Source: Acidobacteriota bacterium (lineage in GTDB: Bacteria > Acidobacteriota > Terriglobia > Terriglobales > SCQP01). From it: a stretch of DNA of 64,000 bases. The DNA lies in the NCBI GenBank assembly GCA_027459505.1, contig DAIDIE010000018.1, positions 19,571-83,570 of the forward strand, written 5' to 3'. Below the pieces are notes generated by a model. The model saw nothing but the letters and a program-made list of their open reading frames with translations, did no database searches and was not told where the DNA came from. Positions 4,977 through 53,869 of this stretch are shown in pieces; position 1 is the stretch's first letter; each line of letters starts with the position of its first letter. Both the position numbers and the translations under genes were made by a program.

Positions 4977-5300
4977 TCAGCCCTGCCGCGCCAGGTACTG
5001 CTCGATGGATTCACCGAGGCGTTCGCGGAAGCGTTCGGCGATGGCGGGGATTTCGCCGGCGCGTTCGTCGAGCAGGATACGCTCGACGCGATGCATGGGG
5101 AAGAATGAGGTGGGGAAGGGGAGGGCGGGGCCGGCGCCGTCCTGGGCGCGATGTTCGCGGACCTGGGTGATGAAGTCGTCGAGTGAATTGAGCTCGATGG
5201 CGCGCAGGGTGACGCCCCCGGGCTGCAGGGCGATGAGTTCACCCCAATAGCGTTCGCGCGGATTGCCGAGGGTGAGCAGGACGATGCAAGGAAGGTTCAT
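4977..5300 (-). CDS. Hypothetical protein (107 aa), translationally coupled to scoB
   Basis: The ORF start overlaps the scoB stop by 4 nt (ATGA). No motif recognised. Coding is supported only by position and length. Confidence 0.5.
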   Translation of the reverse strand: MNLPCIVLLTLGNPRERYWGELIALQPGGVTLRAIELNSLDDFITQVREHRAQDGAGPALPFPTSFFPMHRVERILLDERAGEIPAIAERFRERLGESIEQYLARQG

Positions 5301-11259: not shown

Positions 11260-12252
11260 ATGAAGACCAGACTTTTTTCTTTCCTGCCGGCCGTTGTGCC
11301 GGTGAGCGTGGCCTTGCTGCTGGCCATTCCCTGCGTGGGCGGAACGCGTCCGCGGCCAGTTCACCGGGCGGCCGCAGTGATTTCACCGGCGCTGCGGGAA
11401 CGGCTGGTGCAATATCTGTGGGCGCAGGAGGGCTGGCAGGGGATGGATACGATCCGGGTCCAGTCGATTGGTCCGGCGCGCGATGGCTTACGGCAGGTGG
11501 ATGTTTATGTAGCCAAGGGCAAGCAGCACGCCATCCAGAAGTTTTACATCACGGCAAACGGCCGCAAGATCATCAGCGGGGACGTGACCGAGTTGACCGC
11601 GAATCCGTTTGGGGCCAACGTGGGCAAGCTGGCGGCGGGCCCGCAGCAGCCGGCGGAGGGGCCGAGCCACGCCGCGGTGACGATCTATGAGTTCAGCGAT
11701 CTGGAATGTCCGTATTGCAAGCAGGAGTTTGGGCAAATACAGAAGCTGCGCGGCGAGTTGGGCAGCAAGGTGAAGGTGATTTTCCGTCCCTTCCCGCTGG
11801 TCAATATTCATCCCTGGGCGCGGGAGGCGGCCAAGGTCGCAACCTGTGTAGCGCAGCAGAGTCCGCAGGCGTTCTGGACGTTTGCGGGGAGCGTATTTCA
11901 GGCGCAGGATCAGATCAAGCCGGAAGAGGCGGCGCGGCGTTTGCACGATTTTGCGCTGGAGTCCGGCATCAACCAAGCGCCGCTGGACCGCTGTTTGGCC
12001 GATCCGGCGACCGCGGCGCAGGTGCAGACGGATATCGGGGTGGCGCAATCCCTGGGAGTCAACAGCACGCCAACTATCTTTGTGAATGGACGGATGATTC
12101 CCGGAGTGATCGATTACAACGTGCTGAAAACGCTGGTTGAATACGCCTCGACGCATAGCAGCGCGGCGCCGCCGCTGCCGGCCCGGGCGCTGAAAGGGAA
12201 GCAGTGCGGCGCGTGTGGAACGCTGCCGCCGCTGCCGAGGAAAAAGCACTGA
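11260..12252 (+). CDS. Secreted DsbA-family thiol:disulfide oxidoreductase
   Basis: N-terminal signal peptide. Thioredoxin-fold CPYC active site (EFSDLECPYCKQ). GVNSTPTIFVNG contains the cis-Pro loop. Confidence 0.85.
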   Translation: MKTRLFSFLPAVVPVSVALLLAIPCVGGTRPRPVHRAAAVISPALRERLVQYLWAQEGWQGMDTIRVQSIGPARDGLRQVDVYVAKGKQHAIQKFYITANGRKIISGDVTELTANPFGANVGKLAAGPQQPAEGPSHAAVTIYEFSDLECPYCKQEFGQIQKLRGELGSKVKVIFRPFPLVNIHPWAREAAKVATCVAQQSPQAFWTFAGSVFQAQDQIKPEEAARRLHDFALESGINQAPLDRCLADPATAAQVQTDIGVAQSLGVNSTPTIFVNGRMIPGVIDYNVLKTLVEYASTHSSAAPPLPARALKGKQCGACGTLPPLPRKKH

Positions 12253-22176: not shown

Positions 22177-22518
22177 AGGAGCGAGCCACCGAGTCCTTCC
22201 TGCGGGAGGAGATCCCCGCCCGGCAACGGCAGACAACGCCGTTGCTGGGGCCCGTCGCAGGTTGAGGGCTGCGAAATTCCGAGGGGCGGCCTCCTCGCGC
22301 CGGAGAGGAGCCCGGCCATCGGCGGCTTCACGTTCTCACTGGAGAACGTGCCAGCGACCCAACGGAAAGCAATGCCAGCGGGCGGCTCAGGAGACGACGC
22401 CGTGCCTCCGTGCTGGCCTCGATTTCAGCCGAGGCTTCAGGTGACGATTGAGGGGCCTAGACCTGCTGTTCGCCCCGAAGCACCTGCCGCTGGGCGGCGC
22501 GCCGGGTCGCGGCTTGTG

Positions 22519-22627
22519 CAGGATTGCGGGCTGTATCCTGGCGTGGCTCCGCCACGCGGTTCTATATTTGGCGGACTAACCAGCGGTTTCACCGCTGGCT
22601 ACTTTCCAAAGCGTCGCTCCGCGACGC
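22519..22627. repeat. Cluster of four short GC-rich hairpins (REP-like)
   Basis: CAGGAT..ATCCTG (22519-22540), GCGTGGC-TCC-GCCACGC (22541-22557), CCAGCGG-TTTCA-CCGCTGG (22580-22598), GCGTCGC-TCC-GCGACGC (22611-22627). Confidence 0.6.
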
Positions 22628-22745
22628 GCTGACCGGAGGGCGTTGAGGCCGGAGCAGGCAATGGCCAAAGCGCGCGTTGACCGGGGTGCGCAAGGACCGG
22701 AGTGTTAAGCGGCGTTTCTATTCTCTTTGCTTTGTCGCTCAAAAA

Positions 22746-22865
22746 CCCCGGATACGGCGGCCGTGGCGCCGCCTAGCGAATTCATTCGAGGGCTAGTCTT
22801 GCCCGGCGCCAAGCGTGATCTAGTTTTGTGGCGCACTGGCAGGCGCGCTGACAGGGACGCAGTAC
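22746..22865. repeat. Bipartite ~120-bp repeat, copy 1
   Basis: 59-nt block CCCCGGATACGGCGGCCGTGGCGCCGCCTAGCGAATTCATTCGAGGGCTAGTCTTGCCC (22746-22804), a variable ~30 nt, then GGCGCGC..ACAGGGACGCAGTAC (ending 22865). Confidence 0.8.
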
Positions 22866-23122
22866 CGCGTGGATTAGCAGTCTGGGTGTGAGTTGTGTCC
22901 GCTTGGCAGTGTGAGCAGGGACGGGCCTCAGGGCAGCAGGGGGTTTGGCGGCATACGCGCTTCGCGCTATGTTGCTTCCCGATAACTTTGTTCGACACTT
23001 TGGACCGGCTGACGCCGGGGCCCCGTCCTGCCGGCGATGGAAGTGGGCGTTTGCGTTGGGGCGGGACGGGGCGTGGAGGCTGCGCGGCTTTTCTTGTTTC
23101 TTTTTTTGGGGCCTGAGGCTGA

Positions 23123-23242
23123 CCCCGGATACGGCGGCCGTAGCGCCGCCTAGCGAATTCATTCGAGGGCTAATCTTGCCCCTGCCCAACCAGCGCGGCG
23201 TTGACAGGCCAGCTTGCCGGCGCGCAAACAGGGACGCAGTAC
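23123..23242. repeat. Bipartite ~120-bp repeat, copy 2
   Basis: 57/59 identity to copy 1 over 23123-23181. The same ACAGGGACGCAGTAC block sits at an identical offset of 105 nt (23228-23242). Confidence 0.8.
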
Positions 23243-23313
23243 GGCAAAGCCCACCAAAGCAATGCGTCCGCGAGGGCCATTCCAACCACTTCGGTATCGC
23301 CACTTCCAGCTAG

Positions 23314-24207
23314 CTACGCTTTTTGTGCTTGCGTGCGTTCCTTCATGAGCTGGATGAAGGATTGGGCGGCGCGGGGCAGGGAGCGGTCGCGGCGGTAGGC
23401 CAGGCCCAATTCGCGCCAAAGGTCCACACCCTGGATGGGGATCAACTTGGCTTCGCCGTTGCGGATCTCGTCATTGGCGTAGCTGGCACTCATCAGAGAG
23501 ACGCCGAGGTTGGCGGCGACAAAGCGTTTGATCATGCCCACGCTGGCGAGTTCCATGGAGACCTGCAGATGGGAGCGGTAAGGGCGAAAGAGCTTGTCCA
23601 GCACCTGCCGGGTGTAGCCGGTTTTGGGGAAGATGATGGGGTGCTCGGCAATTTCGCTGACGCGAATGCTGGGACGGCGTGAAAACGGGTGCTGGGAGGA
23701 GACCATCAGCATGAGACGGTCGCGGAAGATGGGCACGGTTTCAACGCTGGGGCTGTTGACGGGAAGCGTGACGATGCCGATGTCGATGGAGCCTTCATCG
23801 ATTTTCTGCAGAATCTTGTGGCTGAAGTTGCGATAGACGCTGATCTGCACCTTGGGATACAGGCGGTGGTAGTCGGAAAAGGCGTCGGGCAGGACGTAGA
23901 GGCAGGTGGCCTCGTTGGCGCCGATCGCCAAGGTGCCGCGCGGGGTGCTGCGCTGGTCGGCGACCGCGCGCAGGCTTTCGTTGCGCAGTGTCAGCAGGCG
24001 ATTGGCGTATTCGAACAGTACCTCTCCTGCCGGGGTGAGGCGGACGGCCTTGCCCACGCGATCAAAGAGCTTTTCTCCATATTCCTGTTCGAGTTGACGG
24101 ATCTGGGCGCTGACGGCGGGCTGGGAGCGGAACACCTTCTGGCCGGCGCGGGAGAAGCTGCCCTGCTTGGCAACTTCGAGGAATGTGATGAGCTGATCAA
24201 AGTCCAT
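23314..24207 (-). CDS. LysR-family transcriptional regulator
   Basis: Start at MDFDQLITFLEVAKQGSFSRAGQKVFRSQPAVSAQIRQLE (wHTH) with a C-terminal substrate-binding domain. Confidence 0.92.
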   Translation of the reverse strand: MDFDQLITFLEVAKQGSFSRAGQKVFRSQPAVSAQIRQLEQEYGEKLFDRVGKAVRLTPAGEVLFEYANRLLTLRNESLRAVADQRSTPRGTLAIGANEATCLYVLPDAFSDYHRLYPKVQISVYRNFSHKILQKIDEGSIDIGIVTLPVNSPSVETVPIFRDRLMLMVSSQHPFSRRPSIRVSEIAEHPIIFPKTGYTRQVLDKLFRPYRSHLQVSMELASVGMIKRFVAANLGVSLMSASYANDEIRNGEAKLIPIQGVDLWRELGLAYRRDRSLPRAAQSFIQLMKERTQAQKA

Positions 24208-24280
24208 GGACAAGTTCGCCGGGAAGGACTTCGCGGGCTCCCAGCACATCCTTTGAAAAAAAGGTTGAGCGTCAGGCTCA

Positions 24281-39715: not shown

Positions 39716-40807
39716 TCAGAAGGCACGTCTCTTTTTCTGTGGCGCATCGGACTGGTGCATGCGCTCTAAAAGCAAGCGCAGTTGCTGCCCGTGGCCGGCG
39801 CCGGGCAAATTGCCGGAGGCCAGGTCGCCGTACTTCTCCAGGCGGCGGCGGAGGTTGGTAATGGTGAACCGCGATGGGTCAAGGGAACGAGTGAGCTCTT
39901 TCCACTGCAGCGGAGTCGAGACGGTTGCGCCGGGATAGGCGCGTGGTGAATAGGGCGGCGGAATCGTTTTGCCGGGAGCGTTCTGGCGGAAGTCGAGGAA
40001 GACGCGGTCGCGAGGCCTGTCAGCGACGGACCAGACATCAGTGGTCAGATCCGGGACTTCGGCGGCGGCCAGACGCAGCACGATTTCCGCAAAGCGTGAG
40101 CTCTGGGCGAAGCTATGCCCGGGAGCGAGTGGGAGCAGAATATGCATTCCCGTGGCGCCCGAGGTTTTTGGAAAGCCGAGGATCTCGTATTTTTCCAGAA
40201 CGCGGCGGATGGCCTGGGCGACGCGGACCACCTTATCGAAGCCGGCGTCAGGCCCGGGATCAAGATCGAGCAGCACGAAATCCGGCTGATCGGGAGTTGC
40301 GGCGCGGCTCATCCAGACGTTGTGGTCAATGCAACCGAGGTTCACCAGGTAGAGCAGAGTCGGGCAGTCGTTGCACAAGACGTAGTTGATGTAGGTGCGC
40401 TCGCCCTTGCTGGGGAGGGGTGCGGTGCGCACCCAAGGGGGCATGTGCTCACCGGCCTCTTTCTGGAAGAACCACGGGCGATCGATACCTTGCGGGAAGC
40501 GCTTGAGGGTGGCGGGCCGGTTTAAAAGGTGCGGCAGCATGAACTCAGCGACGTCGTGAGAATAGTCCAGCAGGTCCCGTTTGGTATGGCCGGATGAGGG
40601 GAAGTAGACTTTGTCGAGGTTGGAGAGCTTCACGGCGACTGTGTCGACGGTGACCTCGCCATTCACCGCGTCGCGGGGAAGCGGTAATGGCCCAAGCAGG
40701 CGCTGGCCGGGAGCACCGCGTTTGGCGCTGTCACGGCGCTGCGAAGCGGTGGGCTGCCAGTCCGCGCGCACGACGGTGTGTTTGGACTTGGGCTTGGGAT
40801 CCGCCAT
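39716..40807 (-). CDS. ligD: NHEJ polymerase/primase (LigD Pol domain, stand-alone)
   Basis: 363 aa. LSNLDKVYFP..G.TK.DLLDY, ...RPATLKRFPQGI....FFQK, HILLPL: archaeo-eukaryotic primase-like LigD polymerase motifs. Confidence 0.9.
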   Translation of the reverse strand: MADPKPKSKHTVVRADWQPTASQRRDSAKRGAPGQRLLGPLPLPRDAVNGEVTVDTVAVKLSNLDKVYFPSSGHTKRDLLDYSHDVAEFMLPHLLNRPATLKRFPQGIDRPWFFQKEAGEHMPPWVRTAPLPSKGERTYINYVLCNDCPTLLYLVNLGCIDHNVWMSRAATPDQPDFVLLDLDPGPDAGFDKVVRVAQAIRRVLEKYEILGFPKTSGATGMHILLPLAPGHSFAQSSRFAEIVLRLAAAEVPDLTTDVWSVADRPRDRVFLDFRQNAPGKTIPPPYSPRAYPGATVSTPLQWKELTRSLDPSRFTITNLRRRLEKYGDLASGNLPGAGHGQQLRLLLERMHQSDAPQKKRRAF

Positions 40808-40869
40808 AAGGCCGCTTTCTCCGGTGGCTATCGTATCTCACGAGTCCAGCGCCGCCAGGGATTTGTCAT

Positions 40870-42789
40870 TCACTTCGTTGCCGGTAGTTCGCGAATGCAT
40901 TCCCTGGGGTTCTTGTCGATGCGGAGCCCCAGAAAAACGGGGGCTCGCAACTTGTTGTCGTTGGTCCACTCCAGAAATTTCACTTCCGCCACCAGTTCCG
41001 GCTTGACCCAGTGGACGCCGTTCCGTGGCGCGGTTCCCACAACATCATCTGGACGCTGGGGAAGGTGGGTCAATTGCGGCAAGATGTTTTTGCGAGTGCG
41101 CGTATCAAAGCCGGTGCCCACCTTTCCGGCATAAACAAAGCGCTTCGAGTCCGGCTCGAACACGCCAAGCAGAAGCGAGCCGAACTGGGTACGCGAGCCC
41201 TGGGGATCGGTGTAGCCGAGGATGGCGACCTCCTGTGACTGACTAATCTTGATTTTGAGCCAGTTGCGCGAGCGCTTCTCCTCATAGCGGGAGTTTTCGC
41301 GTTTGGCGACGATGCCTTCCAAGCCTTGCGCGCGGGCCACCTGGAACAGGCCGCGGCCATCCTCCTGAATATGATCGGAGTAGCGCAGGGCGGCGCCCGT
41401 GGTCAGGATGGAGCGCAAGCGTTCCTTGCGTTGAAGGAGGGGGCGGCCGCGGAGGTCCTCGCCATCGAGAAAGAGCAGGTCAAAGGCGTAGTAGAGCACG
41501 GGATAGAGCTTGCGCGCGCGCTCCACGTCTTTGGGACCGGACAGGTTCATACGCTGCTGCAATTTGCTGAAACTGGAATGGCCCGCCTCATCGAGGACGA
41601 CAATTTCGCCGTCGAGAATAGCGTTCGTGGCGTGCACCGCATCCGGCAGCGCGTGGAGCTCCGGGTACTGGGCGGTCAGGTCGAGACCGCGCCGGCTGGA
41701 GAAACGCAGGCTTCCATTTTCTATGTAGGCTAGGGCGCGAATTCCGTCCCACTTGATTTCAAAGAGCCATTCTGGGGAGGAGAATGGTTCGTCGATCAGG
41801 GTGGCCAGCATGGGCTGGGTAATAGCAGGCAGCGGTGCGCGAGCGTGGCGGGCGCGAGCGGCAGCGGATGGGTTAAGCTCGGTCCGGGCATTCTGGTGTG
41901 GCGCCGGCCTGGAGGGGCGGGGCGCGGCGGCTGTAACCCCATCCGGGGCAAGCTGACCAGGAGCGGAAGTACCAGCCACGGCGCGCAGGCGGGGACGCGG
42001 CAGGGGCTCGGGTTGCCGCTGGTCACTGAGGGGCGGCTTACGTGAGTGGGCGGCCGTTTTCACCGCCTTCGCCGACTTTGTACTTCGGGTTTTACTCCTG
42101 GGCGCTGGTTCCTTCATGGCGCCAGATGCATCGCGATTGCTACCCCAGGTGGGAGCTACTGCGCGCAGCTGTGGGGTTGCCATTTGTTTCAACGTGTGTC
42201 CGGAGATCACCGAGGCGGGATGGCGCTCGGCGGTGTCGCCGAGCACCGCGGCATTATCCGCCTTCTTGAACAAAAGCCACTCGTTGCCGCGGCTGTTCGG
42301 GTCGCGGGAGTGCATATGGGCGAGGGCGAACTCGCCATGCAGCTTCTTGCCCTTCAGGCGGAATTTGAGAGAACCACGTTCGAGCTGTTGCACAGGAGGT
42401 GTCTCTCCGAGGGTTTCATAAGTACCCAAATCCCAGACGATCACTTCGCCAGCGCCATAATTGCCATCCGGGATAATGCCCTCGAAGGTGAGGTAATCGA
42501 CGGGGTGGTCTTCCACCTGCATGGCCAAGCGCTTTACTTCCGGATCGAGTGTAGGGCCTTTGGGGACCGCCCAGGATTTCAGCACGCCTTCCATTTCCAA
42601 ACGGAAGTCATAGTGCAAGTGTGAGGCGCGGTGCTGCTGCACGCAAAAGCGGCGTTCGACAGCGGGTTTGACCAGGTGGGGGCGTTTGGGAGCGGCTTGT
42701 TTGGCGCCGCTCGGCTCGGGCGTCTGGTCAAAATGGCGCTTGGCTTTGTACTCCTTCAGTGACACGAATGCTCCTGGTGAACCGCACAT
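40870..42789 (-). CDS. ligD: ATP-dependent DNA ligase LigD (phosphoesterase + ligase domains)
   Basis: N-terminal 3'-phosphoesterase domain (L.EY..KR.F..TPEP; F.VQ.H.A..LHYDFRLE..GVLKSWAVPKGP). A Pro/Ala/Arg-rich linker. Ligase motif I EIKWDGIR. An OB domain. Alternative start at GTG 42765. Confidence 0.93.
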   Translation of the reverse strand: MCGSPGAFVSLKEYKAKRHFDQTPEPSGAKQAAPKRPHLVKPAVERRFCVQQHRASHLHYDFRLEMEGVLKSWAVPKGPTLDPEVKRLAMQVEDHPVDYLTFEGIIPDGNYGAGEVIVWDLGTYETLGETPPVQQLERGSLKFRLKGKKLHGEFALAHMHSRDPNSRGNEWLLFKKADNAAVLGDTAERHPASVISGHTLKQMATPQLRAVAPTWGSNRDASGAMKEPAPRSKTRSTKSAKAVKTAAHSRKPPLSDQRQPEPLPRPRLRAVAGTSAPGQLAPDGVTAAAPRPSRPAPHQNARTELNPSAAARARHARAPLPAITQPMLATLIDEPFSSPEWLFEIKWDGIRALAYIENGSLRFSSRRGLDLTAQYPELHALPDAVHATNAILDGEIVVLDEAGHSSFSKLQQRMNLSGPKDVERARKLYPVLYYAFDLLFLDGEDLRGRPLLQRKERLRSILTTGAALRYSDHIQEDGRGLFQVARAQGLEGIVAKRENSRYEEKRSRNWLKIKISQSQEVAILGYTDPQGSRTQFGSLLLGVFEPDSKRFVYAGKVGTGFDTRTRKNILPQLTHLPQRPDDVVGTAPRNGVHWVKPELVAEVKFLEWTNDNKLRAPVFLGLRIDKNPRECIRELPATK

Positions 42790-42964
42790 TTCACAAGTTG
42801 GAGTGTACCTTTGCTTTTGGATGCCCTGTGGCAGCCTGCGCGCCTCCTGATCACGTTCAGGTTAATTTTGGGGCGGGCAAGTGAACGATGATCCACTCTG
42901 GTTCCACTAAGGCTGGGTGAGGACGAATCCTTCTCGCAGGCGCGACTGGGCATCTCACTTGACC

Positions 42965-43906
42965 ATGGCAAGCGTTTGGAGCGGGTATCTCACCTTTGGG
43001 CTGGTTACGTTACCAGTGCGGCTTTACTCGGGAGCACGAGGGCAGCGCATCGGGTTCCATATGCTACACGCAACCGATCATGCGCGCTTGCGGCAGCAGA
43101 TGGTATGCGAGCTGGATGGTGAGGTGGTGCCGCGGAGCGAGACGGTTCGCGGGTACGAGTACGCCAAGGGTGAGTACGTGGTGGTCAGCGACGAGGAGAT
43201 CAAGGCGGCCGCTCCGCACACGGAAAAGCAACTCGAGATTGTGGAGTTCTGCAAAGGAGGGGAAATCGATCCGATCTGGTACGAGTCCTCCTATTACCTG
43301 CTTCCCGAGGCGGCGGGGCGGCGCCCGTACGCACTGCTGCAGCGCGCGATGGAAGAATCCGGTTACGTGGCGGTGGCAAAGCTGGCGATGCACAATCGCG
43401 AGTCGATTGCGTTGGTGCGGGCGGGCACGGTTCGCGAAGCGGAAGAACAAGATGGAAAGCCGGAGAAGGGGAGCCGGCGCGGGTTGATCCTGCACACGTT
43501 GTACTACCACGACGAGATTCGTCTGGCAGAGGGTTTTGGGGCGAGCAGCGATGTTGCGGTAAGCGAGGCGGAGTTGCGGCTGGCAGAACAGCTGATCAAA
43601 GGGCTGGCCGCGCCCTTTCACCCCGCGCAGTTCGAAGATCACTACCGCAAGAATCTGGAAGAGGTCATTGAGGCGAAGCTGCACGGGAAGACTCCAGCGC
43701 GGAAGGAGGTAGCGCCGAAGCTGGCGCCAGTGACCGACCTGATGGAGAGCTTGAAGCGAAGTCTGGAGGCAATGCCAGCGAAGGCTGCCACTCCCCAGGC
43801 GGGGACGCACGCGCGCGCGAGCGCTTCCGAGCCCTCCGCAGGACATAAGAAGCCGCCGCGGGCGGCGGCGCACGGGGCCAAGAGCCGGAAGAAGAGTGCC
43901 TCGTAA
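42965..43906 (+). CDS. ku: Ku protein (NHEJ DNA end-binding)
   Basis: Start MASVWSGYLTFGLVTLPVRLYSGAR, the typical bacterial Ku N-terminus. Lys/Arg-rich C-terminal tail. Divergent from ligD. Confidence 0.93.
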   Translation: MASVWSGYLTFGLVTLPVRLYSGARGQRIGFHMLHATDHARLRQQMVCELDGEVVPRSETVRGYEYAKGEYVVVSDEEIKAAAPHTEKQLEIVEFCKGGEIDPIWYESSYYLLPEAAGRRPYALLQRAMEESGYVAVAKLAMHNRESIALVRAGTVREAEEQDGKPEKGSRRGLILHTLYYHDEIRLAEGFGASSDVAVSEAELRLAEQLIKGLAAPFHPAQFEDHYRKNLEEVIEAKLHGKTPARKEVAPKLAPVTDLMESLKRSLEAMPAKAATPQAGTHARASASEPSAGHKKPPRAAAHGAKSRKKSAS

Positions 43907-52884: not shown

Positions 52885-52923
52885 GTTTTCTTCCTCTCGA
52901 CTGCTATTTCAATTGTTCAGAAG

Positions 52924-52958
52924 AGCCCGCGGGGGCAGCCACTCCGGCGGGCTTTTTT
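52924..52958 (+). terminator. Rho-independent terminator
   Basis: AGCCCGCGG...CCGGCGGGCT stem followed by T6 (52953-52958). Confidence 0.75.
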
Positions 52959-52992
52959 GCGCTTTCAGTTAAACTGAAGTTGGAGTGATTTT

Positions 52993-53250
52993 ATGGCCCT
53001 TGATGTGGTTGTTTACAGTCAGCCTGGGTGACCGCCGTGCCGCACAGTTGCGGATTTCCTTTCGGCGAAAGGAATCAAGTTTGTGTCCAAAGATGTGACG
53101 CGTGATCCCGAGGCGCTGCGCGAATTGACCCAGGTTTATCACAGCCGGTCGACCCCGACCGTGGTGGTCAATGGGCAGGTGATGGTAGGCTTTGATCCGG
53201 TCCGGCTGCAGGTGTGGCTGGCGGAGGCGGGGACGCCGGAGCAGGGTTGA
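52993..53250 (+). CDS. Glutaredoxin-like selenoprotein (in-frame UGA at 53029-53031 read as Sec; active site G-U-P-P-C)
   Basis: Absent from the ORF track because of the TGA. GGAG sits 7 nt upstream of ATG 52993. The translation is MALDVVVYSQPG-U-PPCRTVADFLSAKGIKFVSKDVTRDPEALRELTQVYHSRSTPTVVVNGQVMVGFDPVRLQVWLAEAGTPEQG. This is a complete Grx/NrdH fold pattern: beta1, then CxxC, and later TP(T)V..NG...GF. Confidence 0.7.
53040..53076 (+). promoter_or_regulatory. Candidate bacterial SECIS element
   Basis: Two hairpins lie directly 3' of the UGA. The first is CCGCA-CAGT-TGCGG (53040-53053). The second is GAU(U)UCCUUUC-GGC-GAAAGGAAUC (53053-53076), a 10-bp stem with one bulged U and a G-rich apical loop about 35 nt from the UGA. 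Confidence 0.5.
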
Positions 53251-53280
53251 TTTTGGGCTGGTTTTCGCTCCAGATTGGCC

Positions 53281-53313
53281 GCAAGACGCCCATGCCTGGC
53301 ATGGGCGTCTTGC
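53281..53313 (+). terminator. Long perfect hairpin downstream of the Grx-like gene (no U-tract)
   Basis: GCAAGACGCCCATG-CCTGG-CATGGGCGTCTTGC, a 14-bp perfect stem. It is followed by TGTAGG, so it could be an intrinsic terminator variant or an RNA-stability element. Confidence 0.5.
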
Positions 53314-53413
53314 TGTAGGCCTTGGCACGTTTTGTGTGGCAACTGAGTTTTCCCAATGAACTGCATTTTCAACCCGAACGCCGGTGAAGCAGGTGAAGGT
53401 CAGGGCGGATGCG

Positions 53414-53869
53414 ATGAGTAACCGGCCCAGCGATCCGCGCACGCAGGCGCGCGAAGCGGTCATGCAGATGATCTACGCCATGCAGCTCACGGGGCAAAGT
53501 TCCGGAGAGGTAGAGCGGTGGTACGTGCAGAACCACCCGTTGGAAGCGGAGGTGCGTGAGCTGGCGGGGAGATTGCTGGAATCCGCTGTCGCCAACGACG
53601 AACGCATACGCGAGTTGCTGACGCGCCACTCGCATGGCTGGCGGTTGGAGCGGATGAGTACCGTCGATCGTAGTCTGCTGATGCTGGGGGTAACAGAGCT
53701 GCTGCGGGAGCCACCCGTGCCAGCGGCGGTGGTCATCACCGAGACGCTGAAGCTGGCACGCCGTTTTTCCCAGCCGGCAGCAGAGAATTTTCTGCATGGG
53801 GTATTGGACGCTGTGGCCGGGGAACTGCGCAGGCAGAAGGCAGAAGCGGCGGGCCAGCCAGGCGAGTAG
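53414..53869 (+). CDS. nusB: Transcription antitermination factor NusB
   Basis: Start MSNRPSDPRTQAREAVMQMIYAMQL... with ...ERMSTVDRSLLMLGVTEL, ...VVITETLKLARRF and ..NFLHGVLD. Confidence 0.92.
   Translation: MSNRPSDPRTQAREAVMQMIYAMQLTGQSSGEVERWYVQNHPLEAEVRELAGRLLESAVANDERIRELLTRHSHGWRLERMSTVDRSLLMLGVTELLREPPVPAAVVITETLKLARRFSQPAAENFLHGVLDAVAGELRRQKAEAAGQPGE

Follow-up and report, generated by a model that had tools for sequence, protein, structure and literature searches.

The region 52993–53250 of the window (the whole stretch of 64 kb of DNA that was analysed) is very probably a genuine gene for a selenocysteine (Sec)-containing redoxin of the Grx/YruB-like kind, provided with its own SECIS element, and not a pseudogene; the incorporation of Sec itself is predicted from the sequence. 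This grx gene belongs to a large Sec clade of the redoxin, which is common in soil Terriglobia. A preliminary description of the locus had read it as a glutaredoxin-like selenoprotein with a U-P-P-C active site and a SECIS-like second hairpin, and the analysis supports this reading overall.

The coding sequence lies on the plus strand and is preceded by a Shine-Dalgarno sequence, GGAG (52982–52985), 7 nt 5′ of the ATG at 52993. Direct reading of this frame gives MALDVVVYSQPG for codons 1–12, followed by a TGA (53029–53031), past which the same frame runs on as PPCRTVADFLSAKGIKF...STPTVVVNGQVMVGFDP... and closes at the TGA of 53248–53250. The ribosome-binding site, the 12 codons, the in-frame TGA and the open frame beyond it were all part of the preliminary description and are borne out by the sequence. 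Translation, the match to PF00462, the alignments and the coding potential concur on a product of 85 aa, MALDVVVYSQPG-U-PPCRTV...TPEQG. The alignment to homologues places the predicted selenocysteine (U13) where the CxxC motif has its N-terminal, nucleophilic Cys, and the TGC at 53038–53040 encodes C16, the resolving Cys of U-P-P-C, as judged by sequence, translation and alignment. Codon-usage coding potential rises above zero in the proposed frame only, both before and after the internal TGA. The codon is not reassigned to sense in the source organism, since TGA terminates 21 of the 40 confident ORFs of the window; it is the commonest stop there, and the grx gene itself ends with it.

One point of the preliminary description has to be corrected. 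It held that no ORF was listed between the PG-binding gene and nusB, but the list contains a GTG-initiated ORF of 55 aa (53083–53250, plus strand) and an antisense ORF of 164 aa (52969–53463). The former is the C-terminal tail of the grx gene, devoid of the active site, and it has a counterpart in the public records: the top match of the protein search is an NCBI gene call of 55 aa (P0001), which is identical to the tail ORF except for the start residue.

With U modelled as C, the 85-aa product matches the Pfam glutaredoxin domain (PF00462; 58.8 bits, cutoff 22.9), its residues 5–63 spanning profile positions 1–59 of 60. The best NCBIfam family is GlrX_YruB (TIGR02196) with 79.6 bits, a score which does not reach the curated cutoff of 88.55. 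The scores for NrdH (TIGR02194, 40.4 bits, cutoff 85.75) and for the Uxx-star family NF041212 (54.8 bits, cutoff 66) are also below their cutoffs. No ribonucleotide reductase family was matched among the scanned ORFs of the window, and the window protein, which ends in ...TPEQG-stop, has no C-terminal UXX-stop motif. In the PDB sequence match, the closest solved chains are CPPC or Grx proteins of 78–84 aa. For instance, 3ZIT/3ZIJ (E 2.5e-14) carry Cys in the same column, and the alignment of 3ZIT to the window protein extends over 70 residues with its CPPC in the column of U-P-P-C. The product is hence classed as a glutaredoxin-fold thiol/selenol-disulfide oxidoreductase of the YruB/NrdH-like branch of PF00462, its activity being predicted.

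Homologues found by the protein search with the U-to-C product number 161 and come mainly from Acidobacteriaceae (Silvibacterium, Paracidobacterium, and Pseudacidobacterium). The motif YSQPG-C-PPC is present in all homologues aligned (19–20, of which 19 full-length), and the TGA of the window falls on its invariant first Cys, where the preliminary description had located it. The residues T54 and P55 (the cis-Pro TP) and G66, F67, and D68 (GF-D) are invariant in the alignment and are all retained by the window protein. The 12 codons before the TGA, which had been interpreted as the beta-1 strand, are conserved in Sec forms and Cys forms alike. In about 300 homologues, only Cys or Sec occupies the U13 column, and at the nucleotide level the orthologues show exactly a Cys codon or TGA there.

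The distribution of the TGA was examined with a degenerate DNA pattern for YSQPG-TGA-PPC in a species-representative genome collection. The scan yielded 69 loci, against a rough chance expectation of about two. In 68 of the 69 (5 are cut by a contig end), the DNA codes for a homologous protein of 75–90 aa and the frame is open both before and after the TGA. Most of these loci belong to Terriglobia or to MAGs of 'Ca. Angelobacter', and a few to Clostridia, Herpetosiphonaceae, Planctomycetota, Abditibacteriales, and one Ammoniphilus isolate. A second scan, of metagenomes, allowed TGA, TGC or TGT at the active-site codon; among the 120 matches listed, 80 have TGA, 31 TGC, and 9 TGT, and 79 metagenome loci among the matches listed combine the TGA with a homologous protein. 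The Sec form of this type of redoxin is thereby represented in 60-odd species-level genomes and makes up two thirds of the metagenome homologues among the matches listed.

A complete homologous frame is present in 140 other loci (Sec and Cys forms, from the genomes and the metagenome matches listed). Scattered stops, which the preliminary description had named as a possible sign against the gene, are absent from these loci, all of which are open on either side of the active-site codon. The only exceptions to an open homologous frame, L061, L082/L177, and L181, are false matches of the pattern. Sec forms make up the entire set of the 25 relatives closest to the window protein, with identities of 55–64% (most 62–64%). 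One locus, L002 (DATMNZ010000034.1), is binned as 'Candidatus Saccharimonadales' and carries an Angelobacter-type Sec-grx gene with a hairpin of the type A described below; mis-binning is the probable cause, rather than use of Sec in Saccharibacteria.

Two hairpins had been described 3′ of the UGA, and both exist; only the second belongs to a conserved element. The first (53040–53053, plus strand) folds into 5 bp with the loop CAGU (−7.1 kcal/mol), and RNAalifold finds no conserved pairing at this position across 91 sequences, so it is rejected as part of the SECIS and is probably incidental. The second (53053–53076, plus strand) is a stem of 10 bp, made of 4 bp, a bulged U and 6 bp, with the apical loop GGC (−8.6 kcal/mol). 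Its stem starts 21 nt after the UGA, and its loop begins 35 nt from the U of the UGA. It is assigned as a SECIS-type hairpin from its fold, its covariation, and a covariance model. The single-sequence fold of the region is unexceptional (z −0.85 to −1.5), and these z-scores were therefore dropped as evidence; the significance of the hairpin comes from comparative data and not from thermodynamics.

The comparative data divide the Sec sequences into two registers. Type A, the register of the window hairpin, is represented by 91 of 118 distinct Sec sequences, with a stem formed by bases 27–34 and 38–45 counted from the U of the UGA and the loop GGA or GGC. In 25 of the 118, the hairpin (type B) is located 9 nt farther upstream, with its stem at +18 to +36 and the loop GUU or GUA; the remaining 2 fit neither type. 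The codon string for F-L-S (UUUCUUUCG / CCUUUCG) forms the 5′ arm in one SECIS register and the 3′ arm in the other.

Both types are supported by compensatory changes. In the type A alignment (A2, 91 sequences), 94.6% of the cells hold standard pairs, a share that drops to 46–68% in controls with slid partner columns. Compensatory changes occur in four pairs (U-A to C-G, U-A to G-C), and the observed covariation was matched by none of 500 shuffles. RNAalifold found the same type A core independently. The type B alignment (A4, 25 sequences) is paired in 95.5% with three compensatory pairs. Respective constraints are visible in the codons which form the hairpin. In Sec forms they are synonymously constrained (TAC 67/67, TCG 85/85, GAG 87/87, AAA 65/67, and Leu as CTT/CTC only) whereas the flanking codons vary freely, and in Cys forms five Leu codons occur at the Leu column of the hairpin. 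The window hairpin keeps the constrained codons CTT-TCG-...-AAA-GG. The mean MFE of the segment +18 to +55 is −9.4 kcal/mol for Sec forms versus −4.05 for Cys forms, with a p of 4e-13 that is indicative only, as the sequences are related: the Sec and Cys sets are both phylogenetically structured and p-values overstate their independence. The downstream control segments show no excess folding of the Sec forms.

The 27-nt hairpin alone served for a covariance model (R1), which was built without the window sequence and run on the 64 kb. It retrieved a single site, 53052–53078, with 32.6 bits (E about 2e-9), while the runner-up reached 13.1 bits; a covariance-model search of this region had been proposed in the preliminary description, and its outcome agrees with the hairpin placed there. 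No Rfam family matched the grx locus in the search of the window, in which Rfam gave a tRNA-Thr only, plus a chance miRNA match on the perfect hairpin 3′ of the grx stop (see below). The legend of Fig. 4 in PMC1794560 notes a G in the apical loop of bacterial SECIS elements, and the window hairpin, a short distance 3′ of the UGA, likewise has G in its apical loop. The claim that the second hairpin, with its 10 bp, bulged U, GGC loop and distance of about 35 nt, is SECIS-like is upheld, as it is conserved, covarying, and specific to TGA forms. The conservation expected of it in TGA orthologues is seen in the 91 type A sequences, and the hairpin is missing from Cys forms.

The machinery for Sec was searched in the window and its surroundings. 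ARAGORN found no tRNA-Sec in the 64 kb or in the fetched loci (flanks of about 1 Mb), and E. coli SelA and SelD as tblastn queries gave no match for selA or selD in the window or in flanks of about 1 Mb. Sec use in the phylum is nevertheless on record: PMC1794560 has three selenoprotein families for Acidobacteria, and Occallatibacter riparius, listed under Acidobacteriota, is a Sec user with three selenoproteins (PMC12013277).

If the lineage had inherited a Sec-type gene and the genome had then lost the Sec machinery, or if a Cys codon had mutated to TGA, the locus would be a decaying relic whose translation stops after 12 residues. The machinery that was not seen in the window would agree with such a history, as would the divergence of the window protein (62–63% identity to the nearest Sec forms) and the public gene call, which is a 55-aa fragment. 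On the other hand, no break in the frame is seen before or after the TGA, the start codon and RBS of the gene are good, only the proposed frame has a positive coding potential, and the invariant residues of the family are all present. The hairpin keeps the constrained codons of its family and scores 32.6 bits against a model derived from other genomes; a simple mutation of Cys to TGA would not create a SECIS hairpin that is missing from the Cys forms. Moreover, all nearest relatives are Sec forms. Decay of the locus is therefore considered improbable.

Still less probable is a bypass of the UGA free of selenium, either by near-cognate insertion of Trp or Cys or by hairpin-stimulated read-through, or else a functional product made from the 55-aa GTG ORF. 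Such an ORF does exist, and read-through of a stop codon can in general be stimulated by a stem-loop on its 3′ side. The UGA, however, stands at the position of the catalytic nucleophile, where Trp would abolish activity and where the roughly 300 homologues have Cys or Sec exclusively, and the 55-aa product would be without beta-1, the active site, and helix 1. Against a bypass also speak the UxxC Grx selenoproteins, which are experimentally established according to PMC13188914, and the G-containing apical loop, which the hairpin shares with bacterial SECIS elements (PMC1794560, Fig. 4 legend). A sequencing or assembly error turning TGC or TGT into TGA, for which a single-base difference would be enough, is the least probable reading. 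About 147 independent assemblies among the matches listed share this TGA, it is accompanied by a hairpin peculiar to TGA forms, and the NCBI record behind P0001 shows the same truncation.

For a Sec-encoding grx gene, the following course of decoding and catalysis is proposed. The mRNA carries an in-frame UGA and, 21 nt later, the conserved hairpin 53053–53076 with its loop G-G-C. By analogy with the established bacterial Sec pathway, a complex of SelB, GTP and Sec-tRNA(Sec) would bind the hairpin and deliver Sec at the UGA, after which translation would run on to the normal TGA stop at 53248. From the fold, the U13 selenolate may then attack a disulfide or sulfenic acid of the substrate, and C16 would resolve the mixed intermediate, giving a selenenylsulfide. 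Thioredoxin reductase or a low-molecular-weight thiol would finally reduce the enzyme again. CPPC and NrdH-like relatives often use thioredoxin reductase in place of glutathione.

In the window, grx is located between a PG_binding_1 gene and nusB. At the end of the upstream PG_binding_1 gene, a hairpin resembling an intrinsic terminator with a U6 tract folds at 52918–52959 (plus strand; −29.1 kcal/mol, z −4.5, with none of 200 shuffles as stable), and its 3′ end reads CUUUUUUG. Between the grx stop and nusB, a perfect GC-rich hairpin of 15 bp is found at 53281–53313 (plus strand; −37.5 kcal/mol, z −6.4). It has no U-tract and is thus not a canonical intrinsic terminator; probably it is a transcript-end or stabilising structure between the two genes. 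The gene is a self-contained unit, with the terminator marking the boundary on its 5′ side and the strong hairpin on its 3′ side.

This context differs from that of the main Sec clade, whose gene order is OsmC-grx-EamA (loci L001–L189, e.g., L101 and L029). In 92 loci, an OsmC-like gene (PF02566) on the same strand ends about 100 nt upstream of grx, and in 103 loci an EamA transporter gene begins about 60–160 nt downstream. The window copy stands outside this arrangement, as its neighbors are PG_binding_1 and nusB, and the 64 kb contain no OsmC gene. Among the compared loci, nusB lies directly 3′ of grx only in two Sec loci (L020 and L117) and two Cys loci (L106 and L108). Judged by its sequence, the window grx is a divergent member of the clade, 62–63% identical to its nearest Sec relatives and with a synteny unlike that of the main group. 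A thiol peroxidase gene (Tpx) is located 5.5 kb downstream of it. The linkage of OsmC and grx suggests a possible role of the Sec-redoxin in recycling an OsmC-type hydroperoxide reductase.

Other parts of the window were inspected as well. A codon-usage scan of all TGA codons pointed to a second selenoprotein with TGA at 5184 (plus strand), but the candidate is weak and looks like the antisense of a minus-strand gene, and it was set aside. The ORF 11260–12252 (plus strand, 330 aa) has as its sole NCBIfam match the Rcas_1661 family thioredoxin-like (seleno)lipoprotein ('DsbG-like'; 77.9 bits, cutoff 190). It was rejected as a selenoprotein, being a Cys form with CPYC at the active site and no TGA. 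The best NCBIfam family of a LysR gene at 23314–24249 (minus strand) is the 'selenium metabolism-associated LysR family transcriptional regulator' (NF040786) with 212.8 bits, below the cutoff of 250, and no recognisable selenium genes are found among its neighbors. Upstream of this LysR gene, a stretch of about 1.1 kb (22240–23313) has no credible ORF and no Rfam or tRNA match. It contains an element of about 124 nt twice (22745–22868 and 23122–23245), the copies being 377 nt apart and 97% identical over a core of 60 nt.

An NHEJ cluster occupies 39716–43906, in which LigD is split into a polymerase-domain gene (39716–40807) and a phosphoesterase-plus-ligase gene (40870–42789), both on the minus strand, and a Ku gene (42917–43906, plus strand) is divergent from both. 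GC skew is +0.09 to +0.20 in every 4-kb bin of 1–64000, with a GC content of 60–64%. The whole window appears to be on one replichore, with the plus strand G-rich.

The Sec clade seems to be missed systematically by gene callers, as the public calls give the 55-aa fragment without the active site (P0001). This is deduced from the protein database, where the 120 best homologues found with the full-length query include no full-length Sec form, yet the DNA scans show Sec forms at least as numerous as Cys forms. The SECIS alignment, with about 120 distinct sequences in two registers, could improve the models of bacterial SECIS elements, which are called incomplete in the literature. The understanding of Sec decoding itself remains unchanged, while the gene adds to the evidence for selenocysteine in the thiol-redox defence of Terriglobia.

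A broader reading is offered tentatively. The U-P-P-C redoxin might be a previously undescribed Sec clade and, in soil Terriglobia, the predominant form of this glutaredoxin-like protein; we regard this as possible rather than probable. It is prompted by the share of Sec forms (two thirds of the sampled metagenome matches listed), by the compact SECIS with a loop of 3 nt and two registers, and by the OsmC-grx-EamA operon in most members. The operon suggests a selenium-dependent reductant for the OsmC-type hydroperoxide reductase. If the broader reading is true, selenium would be a widespread micronutrient need of the dominant, largely aerobic soil Acidobacteriota, and the protein would be regularly overlooked by standard gene calling. 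No mention of a UPPC Sec motif or of this Terriglobia clade was found in the literature, the coverage of which was incomplete, so that an earlier description may exist.

Compared with known systems, the window protein shares the glutaredoxin-like fold with the Uxx-star selenoproteins (NF041212 and NF041114). Those families are named for a C-terminal UXX motif, which is not part of the ...TPEQG end of the window protein. Its resemblance to GlrX_YruB (TIGR02196), NrdH (TIGR02194) and the 78-aa CPPC 'thioredoxin' 3ZIT/3ZIJ includes the size (75–85 aa), the fold and the C-P-P-C spacing. Unlike these proteins, it has Sec and not Cys as its predicted nucleophile, and it stays below the curated YruB and NrdH cutoffs. 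It has no linkage to a ribonucleotide reductase or rubredoxin gene in the window.

The recoding signal may be compared with the SECIS of the E. coli fdhF type. Both are hairpins within the coding region soon after the UGA and have a G-containing apical loop. The bulged U in the stem is common to the fdhF type and the window copy, but it is not conserved in the family of the latter. The loop of the window family has 3 nt (GGC/GGA) and is not GGUC, and the binding of SelB is predicted. The stem of the fdhF SECIS starts about 11 nt after the UGA. In the window family it starts farther away, 21–24 nt after the UGA.

A close parallel is found in the Grx selenoproteins. Grx (PF00462, UxxC) is listed among the experimentally verified bacterial selenoprotein families in PMC13188914, which cites Kim et al. 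(2011). Examples are Grx1 of Clostridium oremlandii (Kim et al. 2011), WP_010943784.1 of Geobacter, and a UPWC Grx in Data S1 of deep-Sep. The listed UPWC Sec-Grx is 29% identical to the window protein (E 3e-13), and the U residues of the two align. The differences are in the motif, which is UPYC or UPWC in the Grx selenoproteins and U-P-P-C in the window, and in the descent, as the clade of the window protein is separate and mostly of Terriglobia. In both groups, the same Pfam domain carries Sec as the first residue of the CxxC motif directly after beta-1, the UGA is followed by an intragenic hairpin, and Cys-containing orthologues exist. On account of the domain, the position of the motif, and the recoding signal, the window gene is placed in the class of Grx selenoproteins.
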